A stretch of DNA of 20,000 nt from Protoeuglena noctilucae. Lineage: Eukaryota. A program made the translations under genes and the position numbers. The notes below the pieces were generated by a model. The model was not told where the DNA came from. It ran no database searches and saw only the letters and a program-made list of their open reading frames with translations. Below are positions 1 through 20,000 of this stretch, piece after piece; within the stretch, counting starts at the first letter, position 1, and each line of letters opens with the position of its first letter. The stretch is from positions 976,344 to 996,343 of the forward strand of contig OY253681.1 of the NCBI GenBank assembly GCA_958009085.1, written 5' to 3'.

Positions 1-59
1 GCGCTCGATCCGCTCGCCAAGGCTCCAGGAATTGCCTTCTGCTACCATCGCGCCCGTCT

Positions 60-1390: not shown

Positions 1391-1485
1391 GTGCGCCGCT
1401 TCAACGCCCGAGCGGCACGCGCTGCGGGACTGCCAGTGCCGCGCCGCCCCCGCTAGGCCCGTCCGCGTTCGGCTGCCGCTCTCCC

Positions 1486-2800
1486 TCAGAGCGCCTTGAA
1501 GAACTCCTTCGAGTCCTTGGGCGTCGGCTTCATCGTCTTCTGGCCCGGCTGCCAGCTGGCGGGGCACACCTCGTCGGGGTTCTTCTGCACGTACTGGATG
1601 GCCTGCAGCGTGCGGAGGGTCTCCTCCACCGACCGCCCGAACGCCAGGTTGTTGACCGTGGCGTGCTGGATGACGCCCTCCTTGTCGATGATGAAGAGCC
1701 CGCGTAGCGCCACCGACTCGTCCGACAGCACGTTGTACGAGCGGCAGATCTCCTTGGTCAGGTCCGAGACGAGGGGGTAGGCCAGGTCACCCACGCCGCC
1801 CTCCTTGCGGTCCGTCTGGCACCACGCGAGGTGCGAGAACTGCGAGTCCACCGACACGCCCAGAATCTCCGTGTCTAACTCCTTGAACTTGGCTGCGGGC
1901 ACGGAGGTCGCGGAGGTGGGACGGGGTGCGGGCGAGGGTGCCCAGGTGCCGCCACTCCCAAAAGCGCCCCAGCGCGCGACGCACCGTAGCTGTCCGAGAA
2001 GGCCGTGAGCTCCGTGGGGCACACGAACGTGAAGTCCAGCGGGTAGAAGAGCAGGACCACGTACTTCTTCCCCTTGTAGTTGGACAGCTTCACCTCCATG
2101 AACTCCTGGTCGTACACGGCCTGGGCCTTGAAGTCGGGCGCGGGGCCGCCGACCAGGGGCTTCTGCGGCGGGGAGGGAGGGGCAGACGGGCGCGTGAGGA
2201 GGCCAGGCATCCGCGAGCGCGCGCAGGCCCTGCGCCACTACGGCCCGCTCCGGATAAAGACGGCTGCAGGGAGCCCCCCGCGACGCCATCGGCGGCCGAG
2301 CTGCGCGGCACCGGTTGGGAGCACGCATGCGCATCCGTCGCCGCGGGGATCACGACGACGGGCCTGCCCGCGGGTCGCGGGCGGGGCCAGCCCAGGCCAC
2401 CAACGGTGGGCCCGGGGTGACCTCGCGGGGCGGCCGATGCGGCGATGCCGGGGTCCGATTGTCAGAGTGATCCAGATGGAGCCAGGGACGAGGCTGGGAT
2501 GCGCGGAATATGCCCCGTCGACTCGCCCCGATCCCCAGACCCGAGCCAGGACGCCCCCCGCCGCGCACTCGCCTCGCAGTGCGCCTTCACGGCGACGGCA
2601 GACCTCTTGCAGACGGCCATCTTGGGCGCCGTGCGCACGGCGCGGCCGGCGAAGGACGACGCCCTGCGGAAGGGACGAGAAGGGCCCGGTTTTCCCGAGG
2701 AGGAGGATGCAAGGAGCGGGTGCACGGGCCAGACGCGACCTCATCTCGCGCCTCCGAGGCCGGCGCACCTGAGGGCGACGGGGGACGCGAGAGCGGCCAT
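1486..2800 (-). CDS. PRX1: Plastid-targeted typical 2-Cys peroxiredoxin, 235 aa; exons 2800-2769, 2663-2573, 2162-1985, 1892-1486
   Basis: Contains [13 protein letters not shown] (peroxidatic Cys), [18 protein letters not shown] and EVCPASW (resolving Cys). The N-terminus [52 protein letters not shown] resembles a chlorophyte transit peptide. Intron 2572-2163 is GC-AG (GAG|GCGAGT). Confidence 0.95.
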
Positions 2801-3178
2801 GGTGCGGGCGTTGGGGCGAACGGAGACCACGTCGAGCGCTATGCGGCAGCCGGGCCGTCTCACACGCAACGTATCTGGGAGGCTGGGAGGCGCGGGGTCC
2901 GCTCTCCGCTCGTTTGCAAAACGTCAGTCGCGCCGTGTCAGAGCCGAGCGGTGCAGCCCAGCTCGTTTCGATTCCCCCCCCGCGCGGGCCGACGCGCTCA
3001 GTCCCTTACCATTGGTATCGGTCCCCTCGGCGTGCCGCAGGGCTACCCCAGAGGCGTTAGGGGGTTTGGAGGTCGCCCGCCGCTGAGACCCTGCGACGAA
3101 ATGGTTCTGTTTAGGACGGGTTAGGAGGAGCAGGGGGACCCTGCAGCGAGCACTCGCTGTCAGGCAGGGGGGGAAGCC

Positions 3179-5261
3179 ATGGGGGCTTCGGGGAGGCGCA
3201 TGGGACTCTTCGACCGCCTGGCCATGTGCTGGCTGGGCCTCAGCGAGCGACAGCTGCACATGCTGGAGGTCCCGGGGCCCAAGGTGGGGTTACGTGCGGC
3301 GAGGGGGGATGCGAGCCCGGGCAGCGCTTGGGTCGCGAGCCACCTTCGGGCCTGATGCTATAGACGGTCGCTGCTATCGGCCGACGACGCTCGAATGCAA
3401 TTTCTGTACGCCTAGCGCGCTCTCGGTCGGCCCGGCCCACCCGCCGAACTCGGCCCCTTTTTTTAGGTGCGGCCGCCCCTGCGGCGCAGCCAGGCAGCGC
3501 ATCGGGCCCGCGCGTGGCTCAGGCATTTCCATACGATGCGTTTGATCGCTTGCGACGGGCGGTGCGGCCTTTCCCTCGCCCCCGGCGAGGCGGGCCATGT
3601 ACTGTCGGCCCCGACAGGAGCCGCTTCCTCGGATCGTGTGGAGGCCCTATAGCGTCGTGTCGTCGGTGTCGGTGTTTGGTGCCGTCGTCGATTGGTCCCT
3701 CCCCCTCGCGTCGCTGCAGGCCAGGGGGGTGCGGAGGTCGAAGCGGGAATACGACGAGATGATAAGCATGCTCACGCCGCTGGTGAGTCGTAGATGCCTA
3801 TGCGCTCCTCCCGCTCGCGTGGCGCCGGCCGGGCAGCGGCCACCGCCGGCATGTGGACCCGCACGCATGGCCGGCCTCGGCTGTGGGGTGCTCGGCCGCG
3901 CGCCCCTGGCACGGGACGCGGCCCGCTCGGCTTGCTGCCGGGAGTGATCCCGCGCGACCTCCTGGCCTCCCTCCGCCGCCGCGCAGCTCTCGGACTGGGG
4001 TTTTGATGTTTATGAGGTCATGCAGCACCCGCTCATACGCGGGCGGCCGCTCGCGCCGGTGGCGCTGACGGTGCTGCAGAACCACGACGTGCTGGATGGG
4101 TGGCGCGTGGATCGGGCGACGATGGAGCGGTACCTGGAGGCGGTCGAGGAGTGCTACCTGGCCAACCCGTACCACAACAACGTGCACGCGGCGGACGTGG
4201 TGCAGGCGAGCGCGAGCGCGGGGACAGAGGGCCTCGAGGCGGGGGCCGCCCCCGGGGCCGGCGCCTGGGCGTCTGTGCGTGTCTGGCGGGAGGCGTCGCT
4301 GCGCCACCCGTGCCCCCGCGCCGTCCCGCGTCCGCAGGCCGTGCACTGCATGCTGCTGATGGACCTGGGTCAGCACTTGACCAAAGAGGACAAGTTCTGC
4401 CTGGTCGTGGCGGCGGCCGTGCACGACGTGGGCCACCCCGGCTACACGAACGACTTTCACGTGCGGCGGAGGGACGAGGTGGCCTTCCTGTACAACGACG
4501 TGAGCTGCAACGAGAACCTGCACGCGCGCATCGCCTTCCAGGTCGCCGACAGCCCCGAGCGCGACATTTTCCGGGACCTGCGGGGGGACGACTTCCCCCG
4601 CGTGCGCCGCACCATCATCCAGTCCATCCTGGCCACGGACATGCAGCAGCACTTCCTGCTGCTCGAGCTCTTCGAGCGGGAGATGGAGAACTGCGGAACG
4701 GACCTGGCCGACTGGGAGGACAAGCAGCTGCTGATGAAGATGGCGCTTCACCTGGCGGACCTCAGCAACCCGGCGCGGCCCGTGCACCTGGCGCAGCGGT
4801 GGGGGTACAACGTGGTGACGGAGATGCTGCGGCAGGAGGACGTGGAGCGGTCGCTGGGCATGGCCGTGTCGCCCGTGTGCGACAAAGACAAGGTGCAGGT
4901 GGCCACGGCCCAGCTGCGGTTCATCTCCTACTTCCTCACACCCACGCTCGACGCGTGGCAGAGGGTCGCGCCGCGCTTCGGGGCCCTCGCCAAGCGCATG
5001 TGCGAGAGGACCACCGAGGCGTGGAAGGACAAGGAGCGGGCCGAGGCAAAGGTGGGGATGCGAGGGGGTGGGGGGGGGGGGGAGGGGGGCAGCGGCATGG
5101 GCATGGGCATGGGCATGGATGGGACATGACACGCGCGCCTGACGCTGCCCTGGGGCCTGACGAGTGCGCTTCCAACCCCCCTTGGCCCCCCGTCATTGCC
5201 GCAGAGCCCCAAGCCCGTGTCTCAGCCGGAGAAGGCGGGGAACGACGGGGCGACCGAGTGA
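3179..5261 (+). CDS. Class I 3',5'-cyclic nucleotide phosphodiesterase; likely exons 3179-3283, 3720-3782, 3987-4205, 4338-5051, 5205-5261 (stop at 5129 if the last intron is retained)
   Basis: Motifs WGFDV, YHNNVHAADVVQ|AVH, HDVGHPG, ENLH, ILATDM, ADLSNP and AQLRFI. Intron 4206-4337 is GC-AG. The first two exons and the last exon are inferred from splice signals and phase only. Confidence 0.88.
5070..5117 (+). repeat. G13 run plus (GGCATG)x4 microsatellite, probably inside the last PDE intron
   Basis: G run at 5070-5082; GGCATG repeated at 5094-5117. Confidence 0.8.
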
Positions 5262-5673
5262 TGCGGCCCCTTTGGCCACCCGCGCCCTGTTCCCCTACCA
5301 GCCACTCCCCCCTTGCCCCGCCTGCCCCGCCCTCGCTGCGTGCTTGCAGGGCCGGAGCCGCCGGCCCCCGCAACTCCTGGCGGACCCCGTTCTGATTTGT
5401 CAGGTGCAGTTGTCAGTCGAGTAGTGCGATGTGTTGCCGTGATTTGAGCCTTTGCTTGCGTCCCCATGCTTCGCCGGACCCCCGGCTGGGTTGCGCAATT
5501 TTCGTCCATCGCGCCTTCGGGGCAACGAAGGAAGACAGCAGGCAACTGATTGTCAGCTCGCGTAGCCCCTAAGGATGCGTTGACGCAGAGCTCTCCTCTC
5601 TCCTACCAGGGCGATGAGATGACTGCCCGCCACTTTGTTTGAACACTCCACGTGACGTGCGGGTGCCCTGGAC

Positions 5674-8029
5674 TCAGACGCGCAGCCCAGCATCAGACAG
5701 CCGCCGCAAGAGCTGCGCGCGGTACTCGGCCGGGCCAGGCAGGGACCCGCGCATCTGCTCCCCGCGCACGATGGCCGACGCCCAGGCCCTCTCCGCCGCC
5801 TCGCATGCTGACCGCAGGTCCCGGCCGCTCAGACCCTGCGGGCGGGGGTGCGCCGCGCGTCGCGCCGCTCCCGGGTGCGCGTCCCCGCGACGCTCGCCGC
5901 GGGGTGCGCGTCCGGTCACCTGGCACAGTCCCGCCAGCTCTGCCGTGGCCTCCCCTGGCAGCTGCCGGGCGTACTCCGCAAGGATGGCGGCACGCTCGGC
6001 GCGGTCGGGGAGGCCAAAGGTGACGGTAAGCCCGAACCGGGAGAGCAGCGCGGGGTCCAGGTCCGCCTTCCTGGGTGGGGGAGGAGAGAGGGGGGGTCAG
6101 AGAGAAGAGGGAGTCCACAGCCAAGCGCCGTGCTGCTGCCCTCGGCACTGCTGTCCCTCACCGGTTGGTGGCCGCGAGGACCACGACCCCCGGGGCGGAT
6201 GAGAACCCATCAATCTGCCGCAGCAGCACCCCCAGCAGCCGCCGCGTGGCCTCGTTCATGTCCGCGGCACGCGTGGCGGCCAAGCTGTCGACCTCGTCCA
6301 GAAAGACGATGCACTTGCCCAGGGACCGGGCGCCGTGGAACACCCTCGCGAGGTGCTTCTCGCTCTGACCGTACCACTTGCTGGCCACCGCCTCGACGGG
6401 GACGTGCACGAGGGGGGCGCCGGCCTCGGACGCTGCGGGGGGGACACCACGCACCGGATGAAGGGTGCAGGCGCGGGCGAGACTGCGATATGCTGCATCG
6501 ACGGCCCATCACCGATGACGCGCGCCATCATGGTCTTGCCGCAGCCGGGGGGGCCCTCGAACAGCACCGCGCGTGGGACGTGGGACCCTGCCGCCGTTTG
6601 CTGCCGCGTTCCCCGCATCACCTCCTCGTACACGTCCCCATGCCTGGCAGATTGGGCGGGGCGCGGTGAGACACGAGACGGCCATAGCATGGCCACCCAC
6701 CACGCCACCCCATGCCACCCGCTGCCTCGCCTCAGCGCCATGAGCACCGTCTCCTCCACCGCCCGCTTCTGCCTCTCGTAGCCCTGCATGCCCCCCCACG
6801 CCGGGCCGTCCCCCTTGCCCGGCATCACCACCTCCATCCCCATGCCCCGCAGCTCCTCCACCACCGACTCTGCGTCGGCGTGGGTGCCCGCCCGCCCCTC
6901 GCCATCCGCCCCCTCCACCTCCCGCCGCTCCCCGCCCGGCAGCCCCAGCCAGCCGCCCCGCGACAGCTCCCCCAGGCCAGGCACCCCGCCCCCCAGCATC
7001 CAGTCCCTCAGCATCTCAAACTCATCCTCCAGCGACCCCCCCGGCTGCTCTAGCCCTGCCGCCGCCGCCAGCACGCTCTGCAGCGCCTCCACCAGGGGAG
7101 GGGACTCGCACTGCGCGCAATGCGGGCTGGTCAGGGTGCGCAACTGGCCAGGCCAGACGGCAGCGCATGCCACGTGCGACCTGGCCCTCGCCTGACTCGT
7201 AGGCACCGTCATCTCCACCCACAGTGCGCCCCCGTCCCCCCGACGCACGCGACCCCGCAGCAGCGGCGCCCCGCCCTGCAGCGGCCCCGACTGCACCTCC
7301 ACGTCGCCCCGCGCGTCGACCGTCTCGACGCAGCTGCCCGTGACAGCGCGCCCCGCCCAGCAGAGGGCGCGGGCCACGGCGCGGCGGGCGTCGCGGGCTT
7401 GCGCCACCTCGCAGCGCACCACCAGCGCGGCGGCATCGGTGGGGGACCGTGACACTGACAGCGACGCAGCGAGGGAGGGCGAGGGGGGGCCTGCAGGGGG
7501 TGACGGGACGAGATCACGTCAGCGCAGACCATCGCCTGCTACAAGCTGCTCTGGGTGGGCGGCCCTCGGGGCAGCCGCGCGCCTGCGTCTGGGCCTGGCA
7601 GGGCGCCCTGCGCTCGCCGCCGGTCGAAGCTCCTGCCGGCGTCCTCCAGCGCGTCTGCCCAGAAGACTGACAGGGCTTGGCGCAGCGACGTCACGGCATC
7701 GTCAGCTCCTTCGTCCGACTGTGGAAGGGGTGAAGCAGACATGAAGGTCGACTGCTATCCAGCTGAAGCCGGGTATCCTGGTTATGTGCCGCTCTGCAGC
7801 CTCGTACCTTGGCGAGGGCAGGGGAGAGGGCTGCTCCCCACAGCAGCGCCAGCAGCGCCCCCGGGAGCCGCACATCGTCCCGTGTGGGCGCCGGGGGCGG
7901 GTGGGCAATCGAACCGCTGGTTCTCTGTCCCATGTTCACAACCCCCTGTTCCTCCCGGGCGACGAGTCGCACAGCCGCGGCGACGGCTCGGACAACGCGC
8001 GCGAGGGGTGCCCTCCGGAGGGAGGCCAT
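5674..8029 (-). CDS. Single-module AAA+ ATPase with N-terminal extension, probably organelle-targeted; exons include 8029-7808, 7718-~7580, 7490-7192, 7110-6731, 6643-6513, 6432-6162, 6070-5920, 5835-5674
   Basis: Walker A GPPGCGKT, pore loop SKWYGQSE, Walker B VFLDEVD, sensor/SRH LAATNR|KADLDPALLSRF, and GLSGRDLR. The Arg-rich N-terminus MASLRRAPLARVVRAV is presequence-like. Introns 6730-6644 and 7191-7111 are GC-AG. The donor near 7580-7615 is unresolved. Confidence 0.88.
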
Positions 8030-8402
8030 CCGTGCCGCTGTGAGACGCCGATGTCACAGGGGAAGCGCAGATTCCATGCAAGCTCAATTTTCGCAATACG
8101 AGTTCAATGGGCGCATCACAAGTTGCCAACGGGCGTCCCGTCGCCAGTGCCCCGGTGCTGGAACGTGGTGGAGCAGCCACACGGTTCGTGGATGCGATCG
8201 CATCCTTGGCCTCGATGTCTGCGTGGCCCGTGTGGCCGCAAGTGCTAGATTTTGCAACCCGCGCTCGCGCATGGCCGCGTGCTTCCGCGACCGACGCTCC
8301 GCCCTCTCGCGCCGCGCCGCGCGTCCCATGAGTGCCTGCTGACGCTCCCGATTGCATTGTGATCGCGTCGCAGCTGGGCATTTCTCAAGATCGGTCGCGG
8401 CC
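8030..8402. promoter_or_regulatory. Putative bidirectional promoter region between the AAA+ ATPase and uL3m
   Basis: Divergent start codons are 373 nt apart and GC content is lower. No specific motif was identified. Confidence 0.45.
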
Positions 8403-10280
8403 ATGGCGCGGCGACTGGTGGCTGGGGCGCTCGCCCGCATCGCCCAGGGTGCGCTCGCGAGCACCTCGGCCGAAGCAGGCGTTTGCCAGAGCTCGTACAT
8501 GAGGAACGGGAGCCAGAGGCTGGCTTTCCATCACGAAAGGTAATTGCGCTGGCATGCACGACCTGTGCGGACGAAGACGCCTGATGCTCATCGCGCCCCG
8601 CTTTCCCAGAGCCTTCTGATGCACGTTGCGTGAACACTTCCGAGGCATAGATATGCTGAAGAGCTTTTTTCGAGACGAAAGCCTCGCCGCGCGCCTTTGC
8701 CTTCCCGCGCAGGGCCGCGCTTTGGGCGCGCGATCTCCCCGGCGCAGGCTCGCCCTGGCCGATCGGGGCCCTCTTTTCGTCTTTCCGGAGATCGCTGGCG
8801 TCGGCGGCTGGGAGCGAGGCCTCGGTTCAACCCCAGGGCGCTGCGGTCGACAAGGCCGGAGGGTCTGCCGTGCCGCAGGGCGGCCGGACGAAGGGCAAGC
8901 GCGCACCCGCGGCCGTCAAGATATGGGCACCGCATAAAGACGCAGCCAGCTTCTTTGGGGCGGGCGAGGTGAGCTCCTGCGCGTGAACCCCAGCAGTCCC
9001 TCGGCGTGTCTCCCACCACCCTGACTTGTGTGGCTTGTTCTGTCTCTCCTTCAGGCATCTCAGCGACAGGGACGGAGAGGCAAGCGGAAAGGGACCGAGA
9101 CGCGGCGCGCATGGCGTGCGGTGGTGCCCTCGGTGATGGCCGACGTGCCCCCGCTGCCGCCCACGCCGCTCGAGGCGCCTCGCGACAGCCGGCGCGCCGG
9201 GCTCGTGGGGGTCAAGGTGCGCGTGGCGACGTGGACTCCCCGCTCGGCACCTGGGGTCCCCGCTGCTCCCTGTGGCTGCCCCGACGCGCTGCATCATGCG
9301 TCATGCCATGCCCCTCGCGCTCGCAGTGCGGCATGACCATGGAGTGGGACTCGGACGGGCGCATGGTGCCCCTGACGGTGCTCTGGTTCGATGGGTGCCA
9401 GGTGGTGCAGGTCCGCACCCCCTCCCGCGACGGCTACGCGGCCGTCCAGGTCGGGGCGGGGGCCAAGCGCACACGCCGCATGCGCCGGGCGCTGCTGCAC
9501 CACTTCCGGGCACACGGGGTGCCGCCCAAGGCGCGCCTCAAGGAATTCCGCGTCACGCCGGTGAGTCCGGGGAAGCTGAGGGGGGAAGCTGAGAGGAGCC
9601 TGAGGGGCGTGGACCATGCAGTCCCAGGCATCGCACGCCTGGGCATGCGGGGAGCACCGCGGGCGTGCCGTGCGAGTCGGCAAGACCCTTCTGCCTTCGC
9701 AGGATGCGCTCCTGCCCCCGGGGACGCCCCTCTCCGCGGCCCACTTCCGCGCCGGGCAGTACGTGGCGGTGCAGGGCACGACAATCGGGAAGGGGTTCCA
9801 GGGGGCGATGAAGCGCCACGGGTTCAAGGGCCTGCCCGCATCGCACGGCGTGTCGGCCGCGCACCGCAGCATCGGGTCCACCGGGCAGCGCAAGGACCCC
9901 TCGCGCACCTTCCCCGGCAAGCGCATGCCGGGGCGCATGGGCGGAGACACGCGCACGGGTGAGCGGGGGCACGCTTGGGCGCCCATTCACGCTCGCACCC
10001 GCGCCCGCACCCCGCCGACGCGCCCTCTCCGCCCTTGCCCCCAGTGTTTGGCGTGTGGGTGTACCGCGTGGACCCCGCGCGCAACCTGCTGTGGGTGCGC
10101 GGCCAGGTGCCCGGCCACGCCGGCAACTGGGTGTACGTGCGCGACGACGTGCGGCGCCTCAGCCGCGGGGAGGCGGCCATGCAGGGGCTGCCATTCCCCA
10201 CCCACGTGGGCGCCCTGCCGCCCCCGGCCACGGCCGCGCCCGACAAGCCCCGCAGGCCCGGGGAGCCCATGTCGCTGTAG
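8403..10280 (+). CDS. MRPL3: Mitochondrial ribosomal protein L3 (uL3m); exons 8403-8539, 8713-8968, 9055-9216, 9327-9560, 9703-9958, 10045-10280
   Basis: Motifs [66 protein letters not shown] and [11 protein letters not shown]. The N-terminus [14 protein letters not shown] is presequence-like. All five introns are GT-AG and phase-consistent. Confidence 0.92.
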
Positions 10281-10299
10281 CGAGGCGCGTGCCCGGCCC

Positions 10300-11477
10300 T
10301 CACTGCCGCGGCCCCCAGGGCTCTCCCCACTCCCCCTGCTCGTGCCTGTCCTCCCCTTGCCTGCGCCGGTGCTTCCTGCGCCCGCGCTCCTCGCCCTGCC
10401 TGCCCTGCCTGCCCCCCTCGCTTGAACACGGCGCCTCATCCGCCAGTGGCCATCCTGTGGGCAACACAAGGGAAGGAGCAGGGCTCTGCAGCCCCGCAGA
10501 GGGCCGGGAGCCCAGCGCGCCCCGTGCCAGCCCCGCTCCCGCCTGCTCGCCTCCCGTGCGACTCCCCGCGTCCCTCTTCACCCTTTCCCGCTCCTCCTCC
10601 TCCCCCACCCCCACTCCCACCACCCCCGCCCCCTCCTCTGTGGACTCGTAAGGCACCGAGTCCCGGTGCAGGTGCACGATGCGCCACCCGCCCCTGTCCC
10701 CCGCGCCCACCCCGCTCCGCAGCACTGCCGTGTAGTATGCCATCTCGTCCACGGGCGCCCCTTGCCCGTCTTCGTACTGCTCCCGCACCAACGCCGTGGC
10801 CCACGCCAGGTCGCCCGCGCGGGCCACCTCGACGCGCGGGGGGTGGACCTGGCGAGGGCAATGCCACGCGGGCAGTGACAGGTGATCTCAGTGCAGCCCG
10901 CGGGGGAGGACCGCGCCAGGCCCCCCACTCTCACCAGGGAGCCCGCGAAGGGGCCCCGCACGAAGCCCTCGACCTCGTCCATGAAGAGCCAGAATCCCAG
11001 GGTCTGACCACGCCTGCGGATCGTGACCCCGTGGTCCAAGTACCGCCCCAGCCACTCGGGGTGCGAGAATGGGCTGCTGGCCCAGCCTCGGTCGTCGGGG
11101 CAGGGGGCGTGCGCGCTGAAGAACTGGCCCAGGAGGTCTCTGACCACGTCTCGTGCATGGGCGTCAGGGACGGCTCGGATTGGCCCTGATTTGTGGCGCC
11201 GACGGACGCGCTGCGATGGGGGAAGGTACGCATCACGATCACCATGCTCGACATCAACAGAAACGATGCGAGTTGCGAGTCTCCGATGCCTAGACCGCAC
11301 GTATATGGAGGCACTTACGGTCGTGGGGCGAGCGTGGTGTGAAAGGGTGGACGCAGGCGCGGGGAAGATCCCCCCGCCTGGTCTTGGCCCGGAGATGCAA
11401 GGGACTGGAACGACCATGACACCCGCGTCGTTCACCCAATAGTCGGCATCCAGTGCCCGCACAGATGAGGCATTCAT
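10300..11477 (-). CDS. NTF2/SnoaL-like fold protein with a low-complexity charged C-terminal tail; likely exons 11477-11319, 11210-10935, 10848-10300
   Basis: [18 protein letters not shown]...YTAVLR...[11 protein letters not shown] matches the SnoaL/DUF4440-type C-terminal strand pattern. Donors GTAAGT (11318) and GTGAGA (10934) have phase-0 acceptors. The start codon and 3' end are uncertain. Confidence 0.6.
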
Positions 11478-11676
11478 GGGCAATCTCAGCGCCTAGAACA
11501 GCCCTGTCTGACTTCTGAGGGCTGGCATATGGACCGCCAGGCCATCTTGCGTGCCTGAAACTCGAAGATTGGTCTTCAAGCGATGCCGGACACGCAATCG
11601 TGATGCATGCAGAGAGACTGTCGTTGTACGGGGAGGGGATCCTTAGGCTCCATTGTTAGGCCGTTCCCGTGGCTCC

Positions 11677-13653
11677 ATGCCAGCCAGCCCGCTGCTCCTT
11701 CGCGTCTGCGTGGCACCCTTGCTCGTGCTCTTTGCCTCTACACTCCTCCAATGCTCGAAGGGCGTCGTTCTCGCGTCGCCGCCTGCGAGCCCCAGTCCAG
11801 CGCATGCGCGGTCTCTCGGCGGAGCGGAGCCCTCGCGGGGCGCCTCGTCCGCGATGAATCCCTCGCGACATGCAGTGATGACAACTTCCAAAGGTACCGA
11901 TCGCGATTCGAGACTCGCGGCCGGCGCGCTGGACAAGTGCTGCTGGTCACTGCGGCATGCGGCGCAGTCAGCCATACCCGTCCCCCGCTCACGGCATGCG
12001 CGACCTCTTCCCCTCGCGCGACCCGCAGAGTGCATGGACGCCATCGCCATGAACCAGATTACCGCTCTCGGAGCCCACAACGCCTACCACTCGCCGCCGA
12101 CCAGCCGCAGCTTTTTGCAGAGAATGCTCCGGCTGTCGGGCCTGCTGGGGCTGTTCGGCTCCGGCGACCGGCTAGAAGCGCAGGGGTTCGCGCGCCGCCT
12201 CAGCCTGGGGTACCCGCGGCTGTCGGACCTCATCAGCCGGCTGGGGATCATCGCTGTGGAGTTGGACGTGTGGAAGGACACCCGGGGTGGGACCTACCAG
12301 TACCAGGCCCTGGTTAAGGCGAGATGCAATGGGGGCGCAGGCATTTCTCGGCCATGCTGGGCTGGCGAGGATGCGCGCAGTGCAGCTAGCCCATGGATCC
12401 ACCCCCGACCCTGCAGCTGCTTAACAACCTGACGCTTCACCCGCTGGCATCGACCGACTCGGGCGCTTCCATGGGCTCTCCCGGCTTTAAGGTCCTCCAC
12501 AGCCCCGACCTGGACTACGGCGTCACGTGCCAGACGCTCGACGCATGCCTCGCAGAGGTGCAGTAGGCAGCCCGGGGGGCCCACCTGCCCCTCTTCGTCT
12601 TCCTGGAGTACAAGCACGCGGACGTGGCGTCCGAGGTGGACCAGGTGGGATGCTTGCGGGAGGGTGCAGTGAACGCGAGCGTGTCGCTTCCCGTTGACCT
12701 GCCTTGTACCGTTCACATCTCCGCAGCTGGCTGGCCTGGGCACGGCGGCCTTCCTGGACCGCCTGCTGAGCCTCCAATCAGACCCTCCCCCACACGGCCT
12801 GGCGCGTGCTGAGGGGGTCGAGGAGGGCGACTGGGCGGCCATCGAGGCGGCGGTGCGGGCGCGGTTCCCCAGGGAGGCAGTGGTGGCACCGGGGGACGTC
12901 GAGATCGACGGCGGGACGGCGTGGTGGCCGCGGCTGGGGCAGGCCCGGGGGAGGGTCGCATTTGTCGGGCAGGGCGCTGCGGCGTCCCAGATCGATGCGC
13001 TGGGTCCCGACCGCATCCTCCACCGGTGCGCAGCGTCATGCGATGTAGTGAATGGCTTGCGTAGATGCGCCGTCACGCGATGTCCCTACCACGGTCGTTG
13101 CCCATGCGCCTGGCATCACCAGGACGCGCTTCCGTGCCCATTCAGGTATTGGGACTTGTGGGACCTGGTGGAGGGGGACGGCAAGCTGCGGGAGGTGTCT
13201 CGTGATACCCTCTTCTTGCAAGCGGAGGCGCGTGACCCGCTCCTGCCCCAGGCGGTGGCGCAGGCGAGGGCGGCCTGGCTTGCAGGCGTGGCGCTGGTCA
13301 CGATGCGTGGGCGACCATCTCCACTGACAAAGTCGCGGCGATTGCAGGGCCGCATCGTCACGGGCATCGGCGCGCTGATGGACGCCCCCGGCGACCTCCC
13401 GGGCGACTCCACAGAGCCGGCCGAGGTCCGCGTGGCCCAGGCCGAGGAGCTGGCGAGGAGGTACGTGGCGGTGGGGGCGCACATCGTCAAGACGGACTAC
13501 GTGGTGCCGCAGGAGGTGCGGGTGGCGGTGGGGTCTCTGATACGGCCGGAGAGGTTCAGCGCCGTCGACCTCGGCGGCGGGGCGGTGGTGCAGTGCAATC
13601 GTGCCGCGCTGGGCGAGGACGTGTTCCAGCAGGGGCGCTGCGCGGCTCCCTGA
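11677..13653 (+). pseudogene. Bacterial-type Ca2+-dependent PI-PLC-like (PLC-like phosphodiesterase TIM barrel) gene with N-terminal hydrophobic signal and an in-frame TAG at 12564-12566; exons 11677-11893, 12029-12318, 12417-12644, 12727-13025, 13146-13263, 13348-13653
   Basis: Motifs NQITALGAHNAYH, VELDVW, PGFKVLHSPDLDY..TC, HLPLFVFLEYK, WPRLGQARGRVAF and GAHIVKTDY resemble the bacterial PI-PLC-C1-type family. The stop lies in CLAEVQ*AARGAHLP. Pseudogene status is unproven. Confidence 0.7.
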
Positions 13654-13926
13654 CCCGTCTGAGCGCATGGCGCTAGGTATTCCGCCGGAGAGCATTGAAG
13701 GCGGGGTCGATGTGCCTGAACTGTGGCACAAGGCGGTGTGGCAAAACGTGATGCGTGCTGGCTGGGCTGTAGCCGAGCATCAGCGGCGAGGCAGGCCACA
13801 GTGCAGCAGCGAAGGAGCCTCCATGATGCTCCTGCCTCGCGGCATCTGTTGTTCGCGGGCAGCGTGGGGGACGCCCCAGCTTGCAGCGTCACAGGCAGAA
13901 AGGTTTGGCGAGTGATTTGCGATTGC

Positions 13927-16401
13927 ATGGAGACCCTCGACTTTGTGCAGTGGAAAGCAACCATGGCAGACCTGGAGCGGATCGCGGCCGACCTGGTGCG
14001 AGCTCAGCTGGGGCGCATACGTGGGGAAAGCGGCTCCCCTGCCCAGCGCGACGAAGCTCGCTGCTCGTCCGTTGACCCACGTTCGTTTATTGAACGAACA
14101 TCGCGTTTTCTGCCTGCAGCTGGCCCGACTCGCGGCCCGCAACGCCGCGCAGCAGGCGCTGCGCCCGGTGGTGACGAGCTACCAGTCGCTGCTGCGCGAG
14201 TGCGTGGCTTTGGGAGGTGACCTCGCTCGTGAGCGACAGGCGGGCGCCCAGCTGCGAGATGAGCTGAGGACCGCGCGGCAGCACGCGGCCAGCGCCTCCG
14301 AGGCGGCCAAGGCGAGCAGAGCGCTGCGTCTGCCACTCACGGGCTGCTCGCTATGCAGCGATGCTGTGTGAGAAGGTGAGCCTGGATGTCGTCCGTCTCT
14401 CGCAGAGCTCGCCCCGCATCCAGGAGCTGGAGGGCCGCCTGTCGGCGTTGCAGGCGGACCTGGTCGCTGCGTACCGTGACAAGAGTCGCCAGGCCGAGGA
14501 TCTGCTGGCAGCGCGGGCAGAGAGAGATGCCCTGACGACGCAGCTGAGGTGGGGGAATCACTTATGTGCCGTTGGCGGCGACGCAGGCGGGCGCTGCAGG
14601 TGAGGTGCTGTCACGATGGCATCCGTGGCTCGCCTCTGCCCCCAGGCAGCGGGTGGAGGAGCTGGCCGCGTGCCGCCGGGAGATGGCCGACCTGGAGGTG
14701 CGTGTGTCGGACGCGGAGGAGGTGGCGGAGAGCGAGAGGGACGCGCGGATGGCCGCGGGGGGGGAGCTCGAGGCGCGGCTGCGGGAGCGGGAGCGCGCGG
14801 AGGCGGAGGCGGAGGCGCTGCGTCGGGAGAACGGCGACCTGGTGTCGCGGGTGGTGGTGGTCAAGCAGGAGCTGGCGGACAAGATGAACGAGCTGATGGA
14901 GAGGGAGCAGGTGGGGGCGGTGGGTGAGACGGGTGCGGTTTTTGGGAGATGCAGTTGAGGTCATATGCACTACTCTTTTGCTTCTCTTTTGCTTCCACCA
15001 TTCAGAACCTCGCCCGTCGTTGGGAGGAGCTGGAGCGCGAGCGGGCGCTGTGGAAGGAGGCGACGGAGAAGGGCGTGGGTGCGGTGCTGCTGGGGGACGA
15101 GGACACGCGCACGCACCGGGTGCCGGAGAAGCGCGTGCTGCACTTCACGGCCCACGAGGGGGGATGCGGGGACGTCGAGTTCAGCGCCACGGGCGCAGCG
15201 CTGGCCACTGGCGGCCACGACCGGCTGGTCAAGGTCTGGGACGCGACCACGGGGGCTAACCGACTGGTGCTGACGGGCGAGTGGCTGCGGAAAGAGGGCG
15301 GGCTGGCTGCGGGTGCGCATGGGCGGCTGGCGAGCGACCGGGGGCCTCGCTCTGCCATCCATCCGCAGGCCTCACGGGGAGCGTGCTGGGCGTGGCGTGG
15401 ACGCCGGACGACCGCCTGGTGCTGGGATGCAGCGCGGACCGCAGCGTCAAGGTGTATGACGGCCTGTCGGGGCGGGAGGTGCACACCCTCACGGGGCACA
15501 AGGACAAGGTCACGCACGTGGGGTGACGGCCGGCCTGCCTGTCGGTGATGGCCAAGCATGTAATGCTGACCATTAGTCTCGCAGAGCCCGACTGTCATTG
15601 TCGCGTCTCGCCCTTTGCAGGTGCGTCGGTGCAGACGGCACGCGCGCCGTGACGGCCGGAGCTGACCGCTGCATCAAGTTGTGGGATCTGGGGAACGGGT
15701 ACGCGCGGCAGACCTTCCTGTGCCACAGCACGTGCAACGGCGTCGCGGCCGACCTGACCGGGCAGACGATCGTGTCCGGGTGAGGGCTGCGGGGTGTGCG
15801 AGTGTGGTGCTGATGGCTGGCGAGGGGGTGCAGAGAGGCAAGGGGACGCCGATGGGCATCGCGTTGTCGCTCCGCAGGCACTTTGACGGGGCCCTGCGGG
15901 TGTGGGATGCGCGGTCGGGTCGCTCGGAGCGCGAGGTCGAACACTTGCACGGCGCGGGCGTGGCCATCCACGGCGTCTGCGCTGCGCACGTGCAGTCGCT
16001 GGTGGGCAGCGTGGGCAAGGACGGGTCGGTCAAGGCGAGCGAGGGGCGGGGCAGGGGAGGCACTGCGCTTGTGAGCGGCGTCACTGGCGAACAGTGCCTT
16101 GGTCGGTGCCCTGCAGGTGGTGGACCTGCGCATGCTCGACGCCGGCCGCGCCCTGGTCCGCCACGCCGACTTCCGCCTGGGCCTGGGCAACTGCTCCGCG
16201 TGCTTCTCCCCCGACGACGCCTTCGTCGCCTGCGGGTCCCACGGCGGGGCGCTGGTGGCATGGGACGTGGCTAGGGGCGGGGTGGTGGCCGCGCTGGGGG
16301 GCGGCGGGGTGGGGGCACCGCCGTTGCAGGGCGTGTCGTGGAGCAAGCAGGGCCCCGTCGCTGTTGGGGACCGCGCGGGAGGGGTGGCTGTGTGGGCGTA
16401 G
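13927..16401 (+). CDS. ATG16: Autophagy protein ATG16 (N-terminal helix, coiled coil, WD40 propeller); exons 13927-13995, 14120-14311, 14406-14548, 14646-14910, 15006-15276, 15369-15522, 15621-15779, 15878-16034, 16117-16401
   Basis: N-terminal LARLAARNAAQ..VVTSYQSLL, a coiled coil ending ENGDLVSRVVVVKQELADKMNE, then WD repeats (AHEGGC, ATGGHDRLVKVWD, HTLTGHKDKV, ADRCIKLWDL, SGHFDGALRVWD, CFSPDDAFVACGS), ending VAVWA*. Three of eight introns are GC-AG. The start may be ATG 13963 instead. Confidence 0.88.
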
Positions 16402-16894
16402 GCTGCTGCTGGTCGAGTGCATGGCTGGATGTGCTGTTGATGCTCTTGCGCGCGCTGAAGAGGAAGGATTGAGAGCAGCGGTGATGCGATGGCGAGCGCA
16501 TGCGCTTGCGCGTGCATGCATGCGACGGTGCTGGGGTGAGTGGTCGGGGCGGTGGCATGGGAGTGGCTATGCGGTGAGGCGTGTCGACCGTGCGCTGCGC
16601 TGTACAAGCGGGCGGTGGCTAATGTGACAGCTGCTGTGCAGGACATGGGTGGGGTAGGTGCCGCGCATGGCGGACCGTGCGCTGGTCGTGGGATGGCGAG
16701 GCGGGGGGAGGCTGCCAGCGCTGGAGGGCGTCAGAGACGTGCTCTGAGGCTGCACGGAGGGCAGCAGCGTGTGACATGGGCCCTGCTGTATCTGCTGCTG
16801 ACCAGGTGAGGGAGGCTGCGACGCGTGCGTGCGTTGCGAGACCTCGTGGACTGCCGTGGGGCAGTAGGCTGGCTGCGAAATGTGAGGTAGGTGC

Positions 16895-17068
16895 TGACTG
16901 ACTTTCCTTCAACAAGGCTCACAGCTAAGGTCGCTGACCTATCTCTTGCCACTCTCGCCCGGGGCCCTCAAGCAGTGGCTTCAGCTGCTTTGGCAGCGCC
17001 AGGGCCAGCAGCTACCAACATTAGGGAAGGTCGCATCAACGGTGTAGCATACATCACCACCGCCTAGC
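16895..17068 (-). other. Structured 3'-terminal RNA element of retrotransposon copy 1 (multibranch, putative kissing loop)
   Basis: Manual pairing shows helices conserved with copy 2 through compensatory changes. The hairpin loops GGCCCU and AGGGCCC are complementary. Confidence 0.65.
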
Positions 17069-17546
17069 CAAAAAGAGGGCGAGGCCCTGGACCCGGCGAG
17101 CCGGTCAAGGGAGGGGTCCCTTGGGAAGTTACTGAGCAGGGCGAGGGGCCCTGGAGAGGAAAAGCCCCCTGAGGGACTATAAGCACACCCCCCCAGGGGA
17201 GGGGAGGAATGGTGGGGTCATGCAGCGTCAGATACAGACGGGAGAGGGAGCAGGTGCCGCGTGGGATGCGGCACGAGGTGGCTGCAGCGCCACAGCTACT
17301 GCTGCAGCACGGTAAGGATCACAGCAACCGGGGGGGGGGCTGGGTGGGCCCCCCACTCTGAGGGGGCCGACAAGTGGGGGCAGCCTACACGGCGGGCACA
17401 ACGCAGCGCGCCGGCTGTGGTTCACCGGCGGCGGTGGGGGGGGAGAGGTGGGCAGCCGAGGCAGCCTGCCCACCATAGGGGCACCGAGAACTCGCCAGGA
17501 GGCAGAGAAGACCACCTCTCTCTGCGCCTCGGGGCTGGCAGCCCCC

Positions 17547-18535
17547 TCAAGGTGGAGCGCGAGAGTGCAAGCCGATGGGGAAGGGGAGAGCGCACCCCAC
17601 ACTCGGTGCTGGCTCGCGATCCATGCCGAACCACCTCCTCGCCTTCGCGATCTCCTGGACGACGGGTCGGCGCTGAGCGAAGTAGGCACACCGCACCGTC
17701 TTGGCGATGACGCGGCGCACTCGAGTCAGCATCTCGCTCGTGCTCGGGGCCCGGGCGTGCGGCAGTAGGCGCAGGGTCGTGTGGTACAGGACCATCGTGC
17801 CCCACGCCGCCATGGTCCATGCGGACGCGACGATGAGCCAAAGGGTCGGCTGCCAGCCGGGCGGGGTCTGCAGGCCGAGCACGTGGCCGGCCGTGAGCTC
17901 CCCTGCGGGGCCCACCGCCCAGGCTGACAGCGCCCGCCGCGCTTCGGCAAGGCGGGGGCACGTCCACAGGGCGTGGATGCGGTTGTTGCGGGGGGTGGCG
18001 CCGTCTTGCGTGGGGCTGCAGAACCGGCACTCATAAAGGTCCGATTCCTTCCAGGCGTTCCTCCCGCACGTCAGGCCGTTGACGAGAGCCAGCCAGGCCC
18101 TTGAGCGGGCGTGGGGGAGGAGGGGCGCGTAGGCCAGTTGCATCAAGTTGAAGCGGAGGTTGTCAGCCGTGAGGCCGGTGGCGCCCGCGTCTGTCAGGGC
18201 CGTGATCGTGCCATCGAAGGTGGCACGCGGCACGGGGGCCAGCGCGAGGCTGTAGGTGGTCCTGATGGTGAGCACGCCCATGATCTCGGGGCGGCCGTCA
18301 ACGCCGGCGGCGTGCCAGTGCAGCGTGCCGGGGGGGAGTGGTGCCAGCGAGGCGCGGGTCGTGGGGTTGTCGCAGATGACCTCGCGCCAGTCCTGGGGGA
18401 CCGCTGCGCAGATGACCCGGCGCAGGGCCGAGTTCCAAACGGCGGACAGCCAATCCTGCAGGTGCCACGTGGTGGGCCACAGCCGGGGGTCTCGATACTG
18501 CTCCCAGATGGCCTGGGTGCGTTGGATGAAGCTCT
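17547..18535 (-). CDS. Partial retrotransposon ORF2 C-terminal region with zf-RVT (copy 1); 5'-truncated, no native start
   Basis: The frame of ORF 17547..18281 stays open upstream to the junction with copy 2 (SFIQRTQAIWEQYRDPRLWP...GRPEIMGVLTIRTTY...APP*). Confidence 0.75.
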
Positions 18536-18722
18536 TGACTGACTGACTCGCTTCAAAGGGTCCACAGCTTAGGCCTCAGGCCTATTGCTCGCCAGTTCTA
18601 GCCTATGACTAGGGGTCCGGGCCCTGGACCTGGCTTAAGCCGCTTTGGCAGCACAAGGGCCTATGCTACCAACACCCAAGAAGTTCGCATCGGCTGTGTA
18701 GTGTACGTCCGCACAGCCTAGC
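18536..18722 (-). other. Structured 3'-terminal RNA element of retrotransposon copy 2 (same fold plus one extra hairpin)
   Basis: Same helices as copy 1 with different stem sequences and identical loop sequences. An extra CUAGUC-AUA-GGCUAG hairpin lies at 18598-18612. Confidence 0.65.
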
Positions 18723-19775
18723 TTAGAGGTGGAACCCGAGGGAAAAACCACCCGAGGGCGAGGAGGGCAAGCCCCCCTGTGCCGGCGAAGGCGCATGCAA
18801 GAAGCAAGCGCAAGACCCCCAGATACGAGGGCGGGTGCCCGCTAGGCGGGCTCAAAGGGCTGCAGCAAGGCAGCGGGGGCAGCTGCAAGACAGCGGGTAG
18901 GCGGCGCGGCGGCTGCCACTCCCCCCGACTCGCAGGGCCGGGCTGGGGTGGCGGGCTCAGTGGCCCACCGCTTGAGAGCCCTGGTGCATGGGGAGGTGCC
19001 CCTGGGGCGCCGCCCTCTGCACCCTGGGCCCGGCCGCCCCATCATGGCGGCGCTCGGGCACGAAGGCCGATGGGGAAGGGGAGGGGGCGCCCCACGCCCG
19101 GCGCGGGCACACGGTCCATGCTGAACCACTGGCCCGCCTGCTGGATCTCTTGGACGACAACAGCCTGACGCTGGGAGAAGAAGGCGCCCCGCACCGTCGT
19201 GGCGATGGCGCGGCGCACCCGAGTGAGCACCTCGCCCGTGCCCGGGGGCCGGGCGTGGGGCAGCCGGCGCAGGGTGGTGTGGTACAGGACCATCGTGCCC
19301 CATGCCGCCATGGCCCAGGCGGAGGCGACGACGAGCCACAGGGTCGGCGGCCAGTTGGGCGGCGTCTGCATGCCGAGCACGTGGCCGGCCGTGAGCTGCT
19401 CAGAGGGCCCCAATGCCCAGGCTGACAGCGCTCGACGTGCCTCCGTGAGGCGCGGGCAGAGCCACAGGGCGTGGCTGCGAGTGTTGGGGGGGGCCGCGCC
19501 GTCCTCGGCGTGGCTGCAGAACCGGCACTCTTGCAGGTCCGAGTCCCTCCAGGCGGTCGTCCTCCCACACGGCAGCCCGTTGACGAGGACCAGCCAGGCC
19601 CGTGAGCGCGCGTGGGGGAGGAGGGGCGCCTTGAGGAGGCGCTCGAGGTTGGCGCGGAGGGCGTCGGCCGTCGGCTCGGCGGCGCCTGCATCGGACAGGG
19701 CTGCGAGCGTCCCGTCGATGGTTGTGCGCGGCAGTGGGGCCAGCGCGAGGCGGTAGGTCGTCGTGATGGTGAGGG
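18536..19775 (-). mobile_element. 5'-truncated non-LTR retrotransposon, L1/Tx1-like, copy 2 (diverged subfamily), abutting the telomere
   Basis: Tail TGACTGACTGACT on + at 18536-18548, ~500 nt 3' UTR, and an open frame 19773 to stop 19042 (LTITTTYRLALAPLP...RAWLVLVNGLPC..ECRFC..HALWLC...RAPP*) colinear with copy 1. Confidence 0.8.
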
Positions 19776-19803
19776 TTAGGTAGGTCAGGTAGGCAGGTCA
19801 GGG
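19776..19803 (+). repeat. Degenerate proximal telomere-like repeats TTAGG TAGG TCAGG TAGG CAGG TCAGGG
   Basis: Read directly between the element end and the canonical array. Confidence 0.85.
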
Positions 19804-20000
19804 TTAGGGTTAGGGTTAGGGTTAGGGTTAGGGTTAGGGTAGGGTTAGGGTTAGGGTTAGGGTTAGGGGTAGGGTTAAGGTTAGGGTTAGGGTTAGGGTT
19901 AGGGTTAGGGTTAGGGTTAGGGTTAGGGTTAGGGTTAGGGTTAGGGTTAGGGTTAGGGTTAGGGTTAGGGTTAGGGTTAGGGTTAGGGTTAGGGTTAGGG
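19804..20000 (+). repeat. Telomeric (TTAGGG)n array, G-strand on +
   Basis: Tandem TTAGGG to the window end, with variants TAGGG (19840), GTAGGG (19869) and TTAAGG (19875). Confidence 0.97.

Follow-up and report, generated by a model that had tools for sequence, protein, structure and literature searches.

Head-to-tail, 5'-truncated L1-type LINEs beneath a TTAGGG telomere at a chromosome end of the green alga Protoeuglena noctilucae

Background

At one chromosome end of Protoeuglena noctilucae, 2 retrotransposon fragments separate the last host gene from the telomere, which raises the question of whether such elements are directed to the telomere, build it, or cap an end that had been broken. 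A first-pass annotation proposed a telomere-targeted or end-extending LINE family. We analyzed the structure of this end, the affiliation of its elements, and the junctions in public short-read data.

Data and scope

All coordinates are positions in the window, the 20,000-nt stretch of contig OY253681.1 analyzed here. Read evidence consists of short-read contigs from 4 of 24 public runs (X1, X6, X8, and X13 among the run names), with at least 31 nt required on each side of a junction for bridging. Counts of tails and junctions rest on the loose ends listed (19 of 103), and contig depth in these runs does not equal copy number. X1 may derive from the same sample as the window; X6 and X8 have the same 2 haplotypes and are therefore probably of the same lineage. 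A joint seen in X6 only (16029-16894, with a 25-nt side) was excluded from every count, and an X6 contig end at 19397 was not scored for the 19398 junction because it was 1 base off and could have other causes.

Organization of the chromosome end

Two 5'-truncated LINEs are joined head to tail with their 5' ends toward a TTAGGG telomere (Table 1), an arrangement given in the first-pass annotation and confirmed by coordinates and contigs; its proposal of coexistence also holds with respect to telomerase-type repeats, as the TTAGGG array, with 29 of 39 parsed units perfect, caps the LINE-bearing end. The LINE array begins 495 bp beyond the end (16401) of the last host gene, which had a Pfam ATG16 match (E 3e-6, under the curated cut-off) and WD40 matches, found on three exon pieces. 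Host bases 16894-16895 keep the repeat register of the inner-copy tail, in the sequence and in the empty-site continuation, and GACTGACT is confined, within the window before the telomere, to the 2 LINE tails.

Table 1. Features of the chromosome end, in window coordinates
Feature	Position	Strand	Basis or remark
Last host gene, ATG16-like coiled coil and WD40 repeats	13960..16401	+	start approximate; exons partly mapped
Stop codon of ATG16/WD40 gene	16399-16401	+	sequence
Target flank	16800..16895	.	several versions in X1, X6, X8 contigs
Host target bases echoed at and after 5' end of outer copy	16882..16892	+	TSD-like remnant, post hoc
Inner LINE copy, 1641 bp, 5'-truncated, 3'UTR 651 nt	16896..18536	-	sequence
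Inner-copy tail (AGTC)2, + strand (GACT)2	16896..16903	-	sequence
Predicted 3'-end RNA hairpin, 12 pairs	16990..17018	-	folding, compensatory pairs
Inner-copy ORF2 C-terminus, 329 aa, CCHC-type motif, L1 ORF2p-like fold	17547..18536	-	open to stop
Outer LINE copy, 1237 bp, 5'-truncated, sister subfamily, 3'UTR 505 nt	18537..19773	-	sequence
Outer-copy tail (AGTC)3, + strand (GACT)3	18537..18548	-	abuts truncated 5' end of inner copy
Outer-copy ORF2 C-terminus, 243 aa	19042..19773	-	open to stop
Six variant repeat units	19774..19800	+	same bases in X1, X6, X8 contigs
TTAGGG telomere array	19796..20000 (window end)	+	34.3 copies, 96% matches

Affiliation of the elements

Both window copies lack their 5' parts, including ORF1, the 5'UTR, and the APE and RT regions, and Pfam, NCBIfam, and Rfam searches of both returned nothing (Pfam, 0 families at E<=1). 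The model of the inner-copy C-terminus (mean pLDDT 57) had its best structural match in human L1 ORF2p (9hdo_A, Z 10.9, rmsd 3.9, 181 aligned), with the next at Z 6.1 and R2 at Z 5.1; a Foldseek search gave no match at E<=0.001. Through the C-terminus, the copies were linked (E 3.5e-9; 36% over 113 aa) to the full-length relatives P0007, P0021, and P0022, in which Exo_endo_phos and RVT_1 were the only domains and the APE endonuclease was intact. P0007 scored 105 bits on L1 ORF2p versus 84 on R2, and in a 21-row RT tree that lacked reference rows for L1, Tx1, and Zepp, the 3 relatives formed their own clade (100/99) within a polytomy with plant L1-type rows. The modeled fold, together with APE and RT in the relatives, supports assignment of the copies to L1-type LINEs, in agreement with the first-pass annotation. 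Its further label of zf-RVT elements is retained only in part: zf-RVT (PF13966) was absent from the copies (E<=1) and from the full-length relatives, while a CxxC..H..C Cys/His motif is conserved in the copies beside the L1-like fold, and a weak Atlas feature match (score 0.95, with recognition under threshold) pointed to a cluster in which zf-RVT accounts for 64%.

Longer close relatives of the copies numbered 0 among 8000 candidates, a near-length search returned 1 protein, and no search yielded a Zepp sequence. The two-copy alignment yielded no DNA context of relatives in metagenome and viral contigs, and the alignment of full-length relatives yielded distant RTs only (64 + 2 loci); among these 66 loci, 0 had at least 3 telomere or tail repeats and none was significant on the C-terminal profile. 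P0008, a nematode repeat protein, was dropped as a repeat artefact. P0006, a diverged 47-aa fragment on a 545-kb contig, may weigh against a reading of end association.

At the protein level the 2 copies are 73% identical. Nucleotide identity is 80.3% over the shared ORF, 55.5% across the middle of the 3'UTR, and 66.7% for the final 190 nt, which identifies the copies as sister subfamilies. Simple tandem duplication was excluded by the 80% identity, the unlike UTR middles, and the unequal tail lengths. Both frames are open, with a dN/dS of 0.38 between the ORFs that probably reflects purifying selection. For the predicted hairpin, compensatory pairs occur in the outer copy (two) and in a third subfamily (one); single-sequence folding of the 3' ends scored no better than that of shuffled sequences (z 0.10 to -0.85), and a search of viral and prokaryote genome contigs with the hairpin DNA motif gave 0 matches. 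GC skew of the array is +0.11 with the G-rich strand outward, and G4-like motifs on the + strand are not clearly enriched (4 in the 2.9 kb array versus 21 in 16.9 kb of host DNA).

Junctions and haplotypes in short-read contigs

Contigs of X1 and X6 reproduced 16392-16921, 17870-18565, and 19479 into the telomere with 0 differences, the host-element contig having 26 nt on the element side, below the 31-nt bridging rule. An X8 contig of 1698 nt (10 differences, 3 gaps) spans the copy-copy and copy-telomere junctions; as X8 also covers intron and intergenic DNA, this contig is not proof of transcription. The copy-copy junction was thus present in contigs of X1, X6, and X8, array junctions were recovered from 3 of the 4 runs examined, and an assembly artefact was rejected on these public short-read contigs, which support the joins of the first-pass annotation.

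Two host haplotypes, ~7% apart at 15878-16168, were identified. Junction contigs had depths of 168, 159, and 149 in X1 (host haplotypes 170 and 118) and of 13.6, 15.2, and 12.4 in X6 (13.4 and 8.7), and the array appears to sit on 1 of the 2 haplotypes. Three contigs carry on beyond 16895 with no element inserted. The final ~100 bp of the flank thus occurs in other versions, 1 of which carries an inner-type tail ~40 bp further in; combined with the one-haplotype junction depth, these contigs indicate that this chromosome end reaches less far than the other flank versions do. The earlier description of the array as the whole subtelomere is accordingly true of the window haplotype and not of flank versions without the insertion. 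Contigs pass without a break through both 5' junctions, so X1 and X6 show no longer source copy of identical sequence.

Among the ends listed, 3 of 4 outer-type 3' junctions (at 18536, 17178, and 17158) are on inner-type sequence, for which the chance under random insertion is ~1e-6 or less, with genome and family sizes assumed. The joints at 17178 and 17158 come from X1 alone, with 80% likeness and short sides of 28 and 23 nt. Both may have arisen by deletion or recombination from a single original event, in which case the independence of the recurrence is lost; the longer tail at the 17178 joint speaks against simple deletion. In X13, 1 contig (depth 4.2) has the outer type ending at 19398, followed by 16 loose telomere-like bases. 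A sister subfamily continues beyond 19651.

Tail-register overlap was 2, 4, and 2 nt at the three 3' junctions with known unoccupied sequence, and telomere repeats were found neither at 16895 and 18536 nor at other tail flanks among the ends listed (19 of 103). In an RNA-run contig, T16 directly abuts (GACT)2 of a sister subfamily; the poly(A) of this RNA thus directly follows (AGTC)2 and is absent from the genomic copies here. No complete target-site duplication was identified at any of three pairings, and the one partial echo, an 8-nt match of 19778-19785 in the variant units to host flank 16885-16892, was found post hoc among these pairings inside telomere-like G-rich sequence, with 8 nt reached by 6 of 33,520 pseudo-junctions.

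Origin of the array

The observed structure, junctions, tails, L1-type fold, and recurring inner-to-outer join lead us to favor, with moderate confidence, a broken end that was capped, in a Zepp-like manner, by a self-stacking LINE family of the L1 clade with few copies and was then healed by telomerase. From these we infer the order of events. At 16895, the G-rich strand would offer a 3' end that pairs over 2-4 nt with AGUC repeats just inside the poly(A) of the RNA and primes reverse transcription toward the chromosome end, the primer being supplied either by a nick of the element's APE endonuclease or by an exposed break. Sister-subfamily RNA would next be copied onto the incomplete cDNA, either by template jumping within a single event or after a second priming; the 5' side would never be rejoined, distal DNA would be lost, and telomerase, the presumed enzyme at the observed junction, would add TTAGGG after a few irregular units. 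A genome-wide preference of the family for ends would likewise be expected; against this, other copies could be interstitial, and the second telomere junction comes from the single low-depth X13 contig and its 16 loose bases. In a further-reaching and rather doubtful version, a deep-branching algal L1 lineage makes new ends by nicking a short repeat near the end, a template jump between two sister-subfamily RNAs with the inner type always first, failed rejoining to the distal DNA, and handover of the cDNA end to telomerase, leaving the 8-nt echo among the first telomerase units.

The first-pass annotation cited the polarity of the copies as a match to telomeric elements, yet any healed centric-side TPRT product would have to point likewise; because healing after TPRT at a break forces the same direction, polarity is not evidence of targeting. 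The same constraint would allow an ordinary dispersed L1 without end preference, nested near the end by chance or at a hotspot and healed after a later break in the outer copy. The intact APE endonuclease of the relatives fits this account, as do 1 outer-type tail and at least 1 other tail on non-element flanks; we nevertheless regard it as unlikely, given that 3 of 4 outer-type tails listed sit on inner-type sequence, that a second element-telomere junction was seen, and that 2 inner-type tails fall within ~40 bp of the same flank sequence in a few-copy family. Targeting of telomere repeats is contradicted by their absence at either 3' tail and between the copies, while the apparent one-haplotype array and the lack of an identical longer source among the contigs of 2 runs argue against a maintenance role; what survives of the proposal is an end-associated, self-stacking, and non-random family (3 of 4 outer tails listed, second telomere junction). 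A dedicated end-extender like HeT-A/TART or GilM/GilT, transposing routinely onto natural ends and buffering erosion beside telomerase, would share the head-to-tail order, uniform polarity, outward G-rich strand (GC skew +0.11), apparent purifying selection (dN/dS 0.38), 5' truncations, 3'UTRs of 500-650 nt, and transcription of the sister subfamily. Priming on a telomerase-made end would, however, be expected to leave telomere repeats at the host-element and copy-copy junctions, where there are none; with only 2 units, apparently on one haplotype, no identical longer source copy seen in X1 or X6, and G4-like density not clearly above that of the host, this account is quite unlikely, and the family is best read as neither a HeT-A-like builder nor a telomere-repeat-targeted element.

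An array made at another end might also have been copied here, with the shared ~100-bp flank repeat serving ectopic recombination or break-induced replication. This account would draw on the several versions of flank 16800-16895, on the recurrence of similar inner-to-outer joins, and on the break-induced type of copying documented for MoTeR arrays (PMC7367193). The unique junction contigs are at single-haplotype depth, however, so no identical donor end is present, and the other joins differ in position and tail length, making this route very unlikely. Most improbable is a Zepp-like centromeric element with a small terminal (telocentric or neocentromeric) cluster from a break at or near a centromere: self-nesting is common to both families, and Zepp clusters occur one per chromosome, mostly internal with 2 subtelomeric (PMC3446292), but the window array measures 2.9 kb, apparently occupies one haplotype, and lies in gene-dense DNA with an intact gene 495 bp away, in a family with few copies overall and a tail unlike the poly(A) of Zepp (PMC3472496).

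Comparison with known systems

Athena and other EN-minus Penelope-like elements have a PLE-type RT, no APE, and telomere repeats at the 3' end, whereas the window copies have an L1-type fold, APE-RT relatives, and tails free of telomere repeats. L1-5_cRei of Chlamydomonas reinhardtii targets (GGGA)n well within subtelomeric DNA, and no formation of chromosome ends has been described for it. HeT-A/TART/TAHRE of Drosophila, which lacks telomerase, and GilM/GilT of Giardia share polarity, direct head-to-tail joins, 5' truncation, and a longish 3'UTR with the window array, but belong to the Jockey and CRE clades; HeT-A/TART builders replace telomerase repeats at all ends, whereas the end in the window is TTAGGG-capped, with 2 units, apparently on one haplotype.

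Zepp/Zepp1 of Coccomyxa subellipsoidea C-169 and ZeppL of Chlamydomonas are also green-algal L1-clade LINEs (for Zepp, PMC3472496 and PMC8226300). Zepp forms nested 5'-truncated arrays and terminal clusters and is found at some termini and on new minichromosomes with telomerase repeats (PMC8226300, PMC3446292); like Zepp, the window family stacks 5'-truncated copies of its own (the window junction and 2 X1 joints). It differs in its 2 subfamilies 20% apart, their fixed inner-then-outer order, its TTAGGG host, and its (AGTC)2-3 tails, against (A)n in Zepp and L1-1_CR (PMC3472496), and in its few copies and tiny arrays, against Zepp clusters of 1.5-42 kb that are mostly internal and probably centromeric. 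Telomerase-maintained ends also carry Tx1-1_ACar (anole), TRAS/SART (R1 clade), MoTeR (RLE; Magnaporthe), and CNL1 (Cryptococcus), as reported in PMC7367193, PMC10088271, PMC5537684, and PMC12810828. TRAS/SART, Tx1-1_ACar, and MoTeR insert in telomere repeats, unlike the window tails, which have no flanking telomere repeats, and MoTeR and CNL1 are R2-type rather than APE/L1 type. MoTeR arrays are, as here, head-to-tail with 5' ends distal, and truncated MoTeRs receive de novo telomeres from 1-4 nt seeds, but their copies are separated by TTAGGG tracts (PMC7367193), whereas the window copies are joined directly. The earlier remark that no L1-type example with such a tail was known thus needs amending, as the L1-like telomeric elements Zepp1 and Tx1-1_ACar are on record (PMC10088271, PMC5537684); as to the tail, (AGTC)n is absent from Table 1 of PMC3472496, where 8 of 15 algal L1 families have other microsatellite tails. 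Endonuclease-independent human L1 insertion at dysfunctional telomeres uses the exposed end as primer (Morrish 2007, reviewed in PMC4700185); that system is experimental, in repair-deficient mammalian cells and with a poly(A) tail, whereas the window holds a natural standing array.

Significance

If the family proves dispersed, the window locus is an ordinary healed break. A capped and healed end would instead extend the record of green-algal L1 elements at chromosome ends by a second, independent lineage with neither a telomere-repeat target nor genomic poly(A). The one-haplotype array and unoccupied flanks in the same sample let existing long reads test whether LINEs located at ends heal breaks or cause them, and whether head-to-tail LINE dimers arise by template jumps or repeated insertion. 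Were the more doubtful new-end-making version true, the junction would preserve TPRT halted before its second step was finished, and the element would repeatedly bring about terminal deletions in a diploid alga.

Structure of the array

The first-pass annotation described two truncated elements joined head to tail and running into a TTAGGG telomere, and the sequence bears this out (table).

Features at the chromosome end, in window coordinates
Feature	Position	Strand	Remark
ATG16/WD40-like gene	stop at 16401		followed by 495 bp of flank before the first element tail
(GACT)2	16896-16903		tail of inner copy
Inner element	to 18536	minus	frame open to stop, 329 aa
(GACT)3	18537-18548		tail of outer copy
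Outer element	to 19773	minus	frame open to stop, 243 aa
Irregular repeat units (6)	between 19773 and the TTAGGG array
TTAGGG array	reaches window end		29 of 39 units perfect

In both elements the (AGTC)n tail lies on the inner side and the truncated 5' end toward the telomere. The copies share 73% protein identity. At the DNA level, 80.3% of positions agree within the ORF common to both, 55.5% within the central 3'UTR, and 66.7% within the final 190 nt; these levels, a dN/dS of 0.38 (241 codons), and the open frames show them to be recent insertions of two separately evolving subfamilies. A single TTAGGG at 17021-17026, in the 3' end of the inner copy, differs at two bases from all contigs compared and may be a private change, the mark of a healed break, or an assembly difference.

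Positions 1-13700 are host DNA dense in genes with short introns, including a plastid-type 2-Cys peroxiredoxin. One of its exons matched a "2-cys peroxiredoxin" entry (E 4e-67) and, at E 6e-64, chloroplastic BAS1, both far ahead of the next entry (E 3e-44), which suggests a green-lineage host. Motifs seen by eye presumably mark uracil-DNA glycosylase, cyclic-nucleotide phosphodiesterase, AAA ATPase, ribosomal L3-like, and phospholipase-C-like genes.

Junctions, haplotypes, and further copies

Contigs, rather than reads, of 4 of the 24 listed public runs (X1, X6, X13, and the RNA run X8) were compared with positions 15000-19812 at 80% likeness, and a junction was considered bridged with 31 nt on its short side. 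X1 and X6 each had contigs identical to the window over 16392-16921, over 17870-18565, and from 19479 into the telomere; one 1698-nt X8 contig, spanning 18121-19808, differed at 10 positions and had 3 gaps. Under the 31-nt rule, three of the 4 runs bridged the element-telomere junction and one the copy-copy junction (short side 29 nt in X1 and X6); the host-element junction fell short of the rule, its element side measuring 26 nt in both X1 and X6. The junctions of the array are reproduced in these contigs, and an assembly artefact is an unlikely source of them. As X1 may come from the sample that gave the window, and X6 and X8 are a single sample with the same two host haplotypes, this is sequence confirmation rather than a population survey.

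The host gene at 15878-16168 occurred as two haplotypes with 21 differences in 290 nt (about 7%), at depths of 170 and 118 in X1 and 13.4 and 8.7 in X6. Depths of the three junction contigs (168, 159, and 149 in X1; 13.6, 15.2, and 12.4 in X6) were at one haplotype's level, and the array is therefore likely, contig depth not being copy number, to be present on one of the two haplotypes. The haplotype depth ratio was near 1.45-1.55 in both DNA runs, which could reflect a hybrid diploid, local aneuploidy, or a stable mixture. Past 16895, three contigs of X1 and X6, along with two of X8, run into other sequence without an element. The last ~100 bp of flank occur in several versions, any of which may be the homolog. 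In X1 and X6, one contig with a variant of this flank carried an inner-type tail ~40 bp farther inward. A joint only in X6, from 16029 (inside the WD40 gene) to 16894 and onto an inner-type tail (short side 25 nt), is possibly due to chance at 80% likeness.

In the portion listed (19 loose ends out of 103, 28 pieces out of 220, and every one of the 7 joints), three of the four visible outer-type 3' junctions lay on inner-type sequence, at 18536 (the window) and at 17178 and 17158 (X1 only; short sides 23 and 28 nt, respectively); the fourth lay on non-element flank. No joint among the 7 paired the types the other way round or joined a type to itself. A second element-telomere junction is weakly supported by an X13 contig (depth 4.2), in which the outer type is cut at 19398 and followed by 16 telomere-like bases. 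Summed contig depth climbed steeply toward the element 3' ends. More subfamilies are suggested by loose ends at 17076, 17393, 19076, and 19651. Contigs ran unbroken over both 5' junctions in X1 and X6, a hint, given that contigs may drop variants, that these runs hold no identical longer source copy.

Identity of the elements

Neither copy matched Pfam at E<=1, and the earlier zf-RVT label is not shown by this test. A profile of the two copies matched 5 proteins among 1.84 billion representatives: two short same-family pieces, a 208-aa fragment, a repeat artefact, which was dropped, and the protein P0007 (1586 aa), matched at its C-terminus (E 3.5e-9; 36% over 113 aa). P0007 and its relatives P0021 and P0022 carry APE endonuclease and RT without RNase H, and P0007 scored 105 bits on human L1 ORF2p and 84 bits on R2. 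The nearest named Atlas clusters were RT+APE, with zf-RVT on 16-48% of members in several. When the inner fragment was modelled (pLDDT 57 on average, 70-88 in the core) and compared with 48,161 chains, human L1 ORF2p was the best match (Z 10.9, rmsd 3.9, 181 aligned), with the next chain at Z 6.1 and R2 at Z 5.1; Foldseek returned no significant match for this model. We have good grounds to assign both copies to the L1 group of LINEs, and the array is a real feature made of such elements. Of the proposed L1/Tx1 type, L1-group membership holds by relatives, bit scores, and fold model, while placement among L1, Tx1, and Zepp-like elements does not follow from the RT tree of 21 proteins, where P0007, P0021, and P0022 form their own clade within a polytomy. 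These three full-length APE-RT proteins (1529-1586 aa) make up a long-branch LINE clade of their own, to which no named search match belonged.

Three other proteins are related to the copies. The public protein P0001 is identical to the inner subfamily over its first ~140 residues and outer-like thereafter, possibly as an inter-subfamily recombinant, a template-switch product, or an assembly chimera; P0002, identical to the inner copy's last 244 aa, is recorded on 10 contigs (longest 91,991 bases); and P0006, located on a contig of 544,778 bases, is a 47-aa piece of a diverged 3' end of the family.

3' ends and priming

Tail-register overlaps of 2, 4, and 2 nt were found at the three 3' junctions with known unoccupied sequence. 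In an X8 contig of a third subfamily, T16 directly abuts (GACT)2, where the DNA runs have more repeat, which suggests RNA polyadenylated immediately past its tail. The overlaps would fit cDNA primed where a target 3' end pairs over a short stretch with the AGUC repeats, the poly(A) staying uncopied. Inner and outer copies differ by two compensatory pairs in a conserved, predicted 3' hairpin (16990-17018), and the third subfamily adds one more. Four of nine third-subfamily changes fell on the 24 of 45 predicted pairs mapped and broke none; one further change, on a long-range pair outside these 24, would break it. Single-sequence folding energies of the 3' ends were no better than shuffles. A similar, stringent recognition of 3' ends has been proposed for algal L1s in PMC3472496.

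Comparison with known elements

Zepp is described as an L1-clade element with nested insertions building arrays of 5'-truncated 3' ends (PMC8226300), its clusters lying one per chromosome, mostly internally with two subtelomeric, and as present on newly formed minichromosomes (PMC3446292). The family studied here appears to work like Zepp at the chromosome end but departs from it in the tail, (AGTC)n instead of Zepp's poly(A), and is not taken to be Zepp itself; in Table 1 of PMC3472496, 8 of 15 algal L1 families end in short repeats other than poly(A), none of them (AGTC)n. MoTeRs, according to PMC7367193, are likewise head to tail with 5' ends distal, and truncated ones were healed de novo, but telomere tracts part their copies, whereas those here are joined without telomere repeats at the tails. 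CNL1 is reported as similar to MoTeRs and R2-type (PMC12810828), the C. reinhardtii L1-5_cRei as targeting a subtelomeric repeat (PMC8287924), and uncapped chromosome ends as usable by human L1 (PMC4700185). The suggested novelty stands in part: searches of open-access literature turned up neither the family nor any telomeric LINE with an (AGTC)n tail, but telomere-located elements, as covered in PMC10088271 and PMC5537684, include Zepp1 and Tx1-1_ACar, with L1-like among four clades.

Origin of the chromosome end

We consider the end probably a healed terminal break capped by a low-copy, self-stacking L1-clade LINE family. An ordinary dispersed L1 without end preference, followed later by a healed break, is unlikely, as three of four outer-type tails on the inner type would arise by chance at ~1e-6 or less, provided joins are independent and assuming a 15-60 Mb genome with 20-100 kb of family sequence. 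Slightly less likely is a dedicated HeT-A-like end-extender, against which stand the probable confinement of the array to one haplotype and tails without telomere repeats. With none at either tail, priming of the inner copy on a telomerase-made end is ruled out, and the element is not telomere-repeat-targeted, contrary to the first-pass annotation; nor, on present evidence, is it the telomere builder also envisaged there. A recombinational copy of the array from another end, with which the several versions of the last ~100 bp of flank agree, seems improbable, and a Zepp-like centromere remnant more improbable still. The polarity, earlier taken as a sign of telomere targeting, would follow from loss of the distal DNA and healing alone, because only cDNA growing from the centric side survives.

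No full target-site duplication was present in three pairings tested. The 8 nt at 19778-19785 are nevertheless a copy of 16885-16892 in the host flank, and the five bases of 16882-16886 close the outer copy at its telomere side. This echo was noticed post hoc within G-rich telomere-like sequence, and a match of its length, 8 nt, arose at 6 of 33,520 pseudo-junctions taken from host sequence, with pure telomere giving 4 nt; we lean slightly against its being real. If it is, the end of the outer copy would have met the target of the inner copy, which would point to one TPRT event with a template jump between copies and a failed rejoin. By this route or by a second priming event, the distal DNA would be lost and the cDNA end capped by telomerase.
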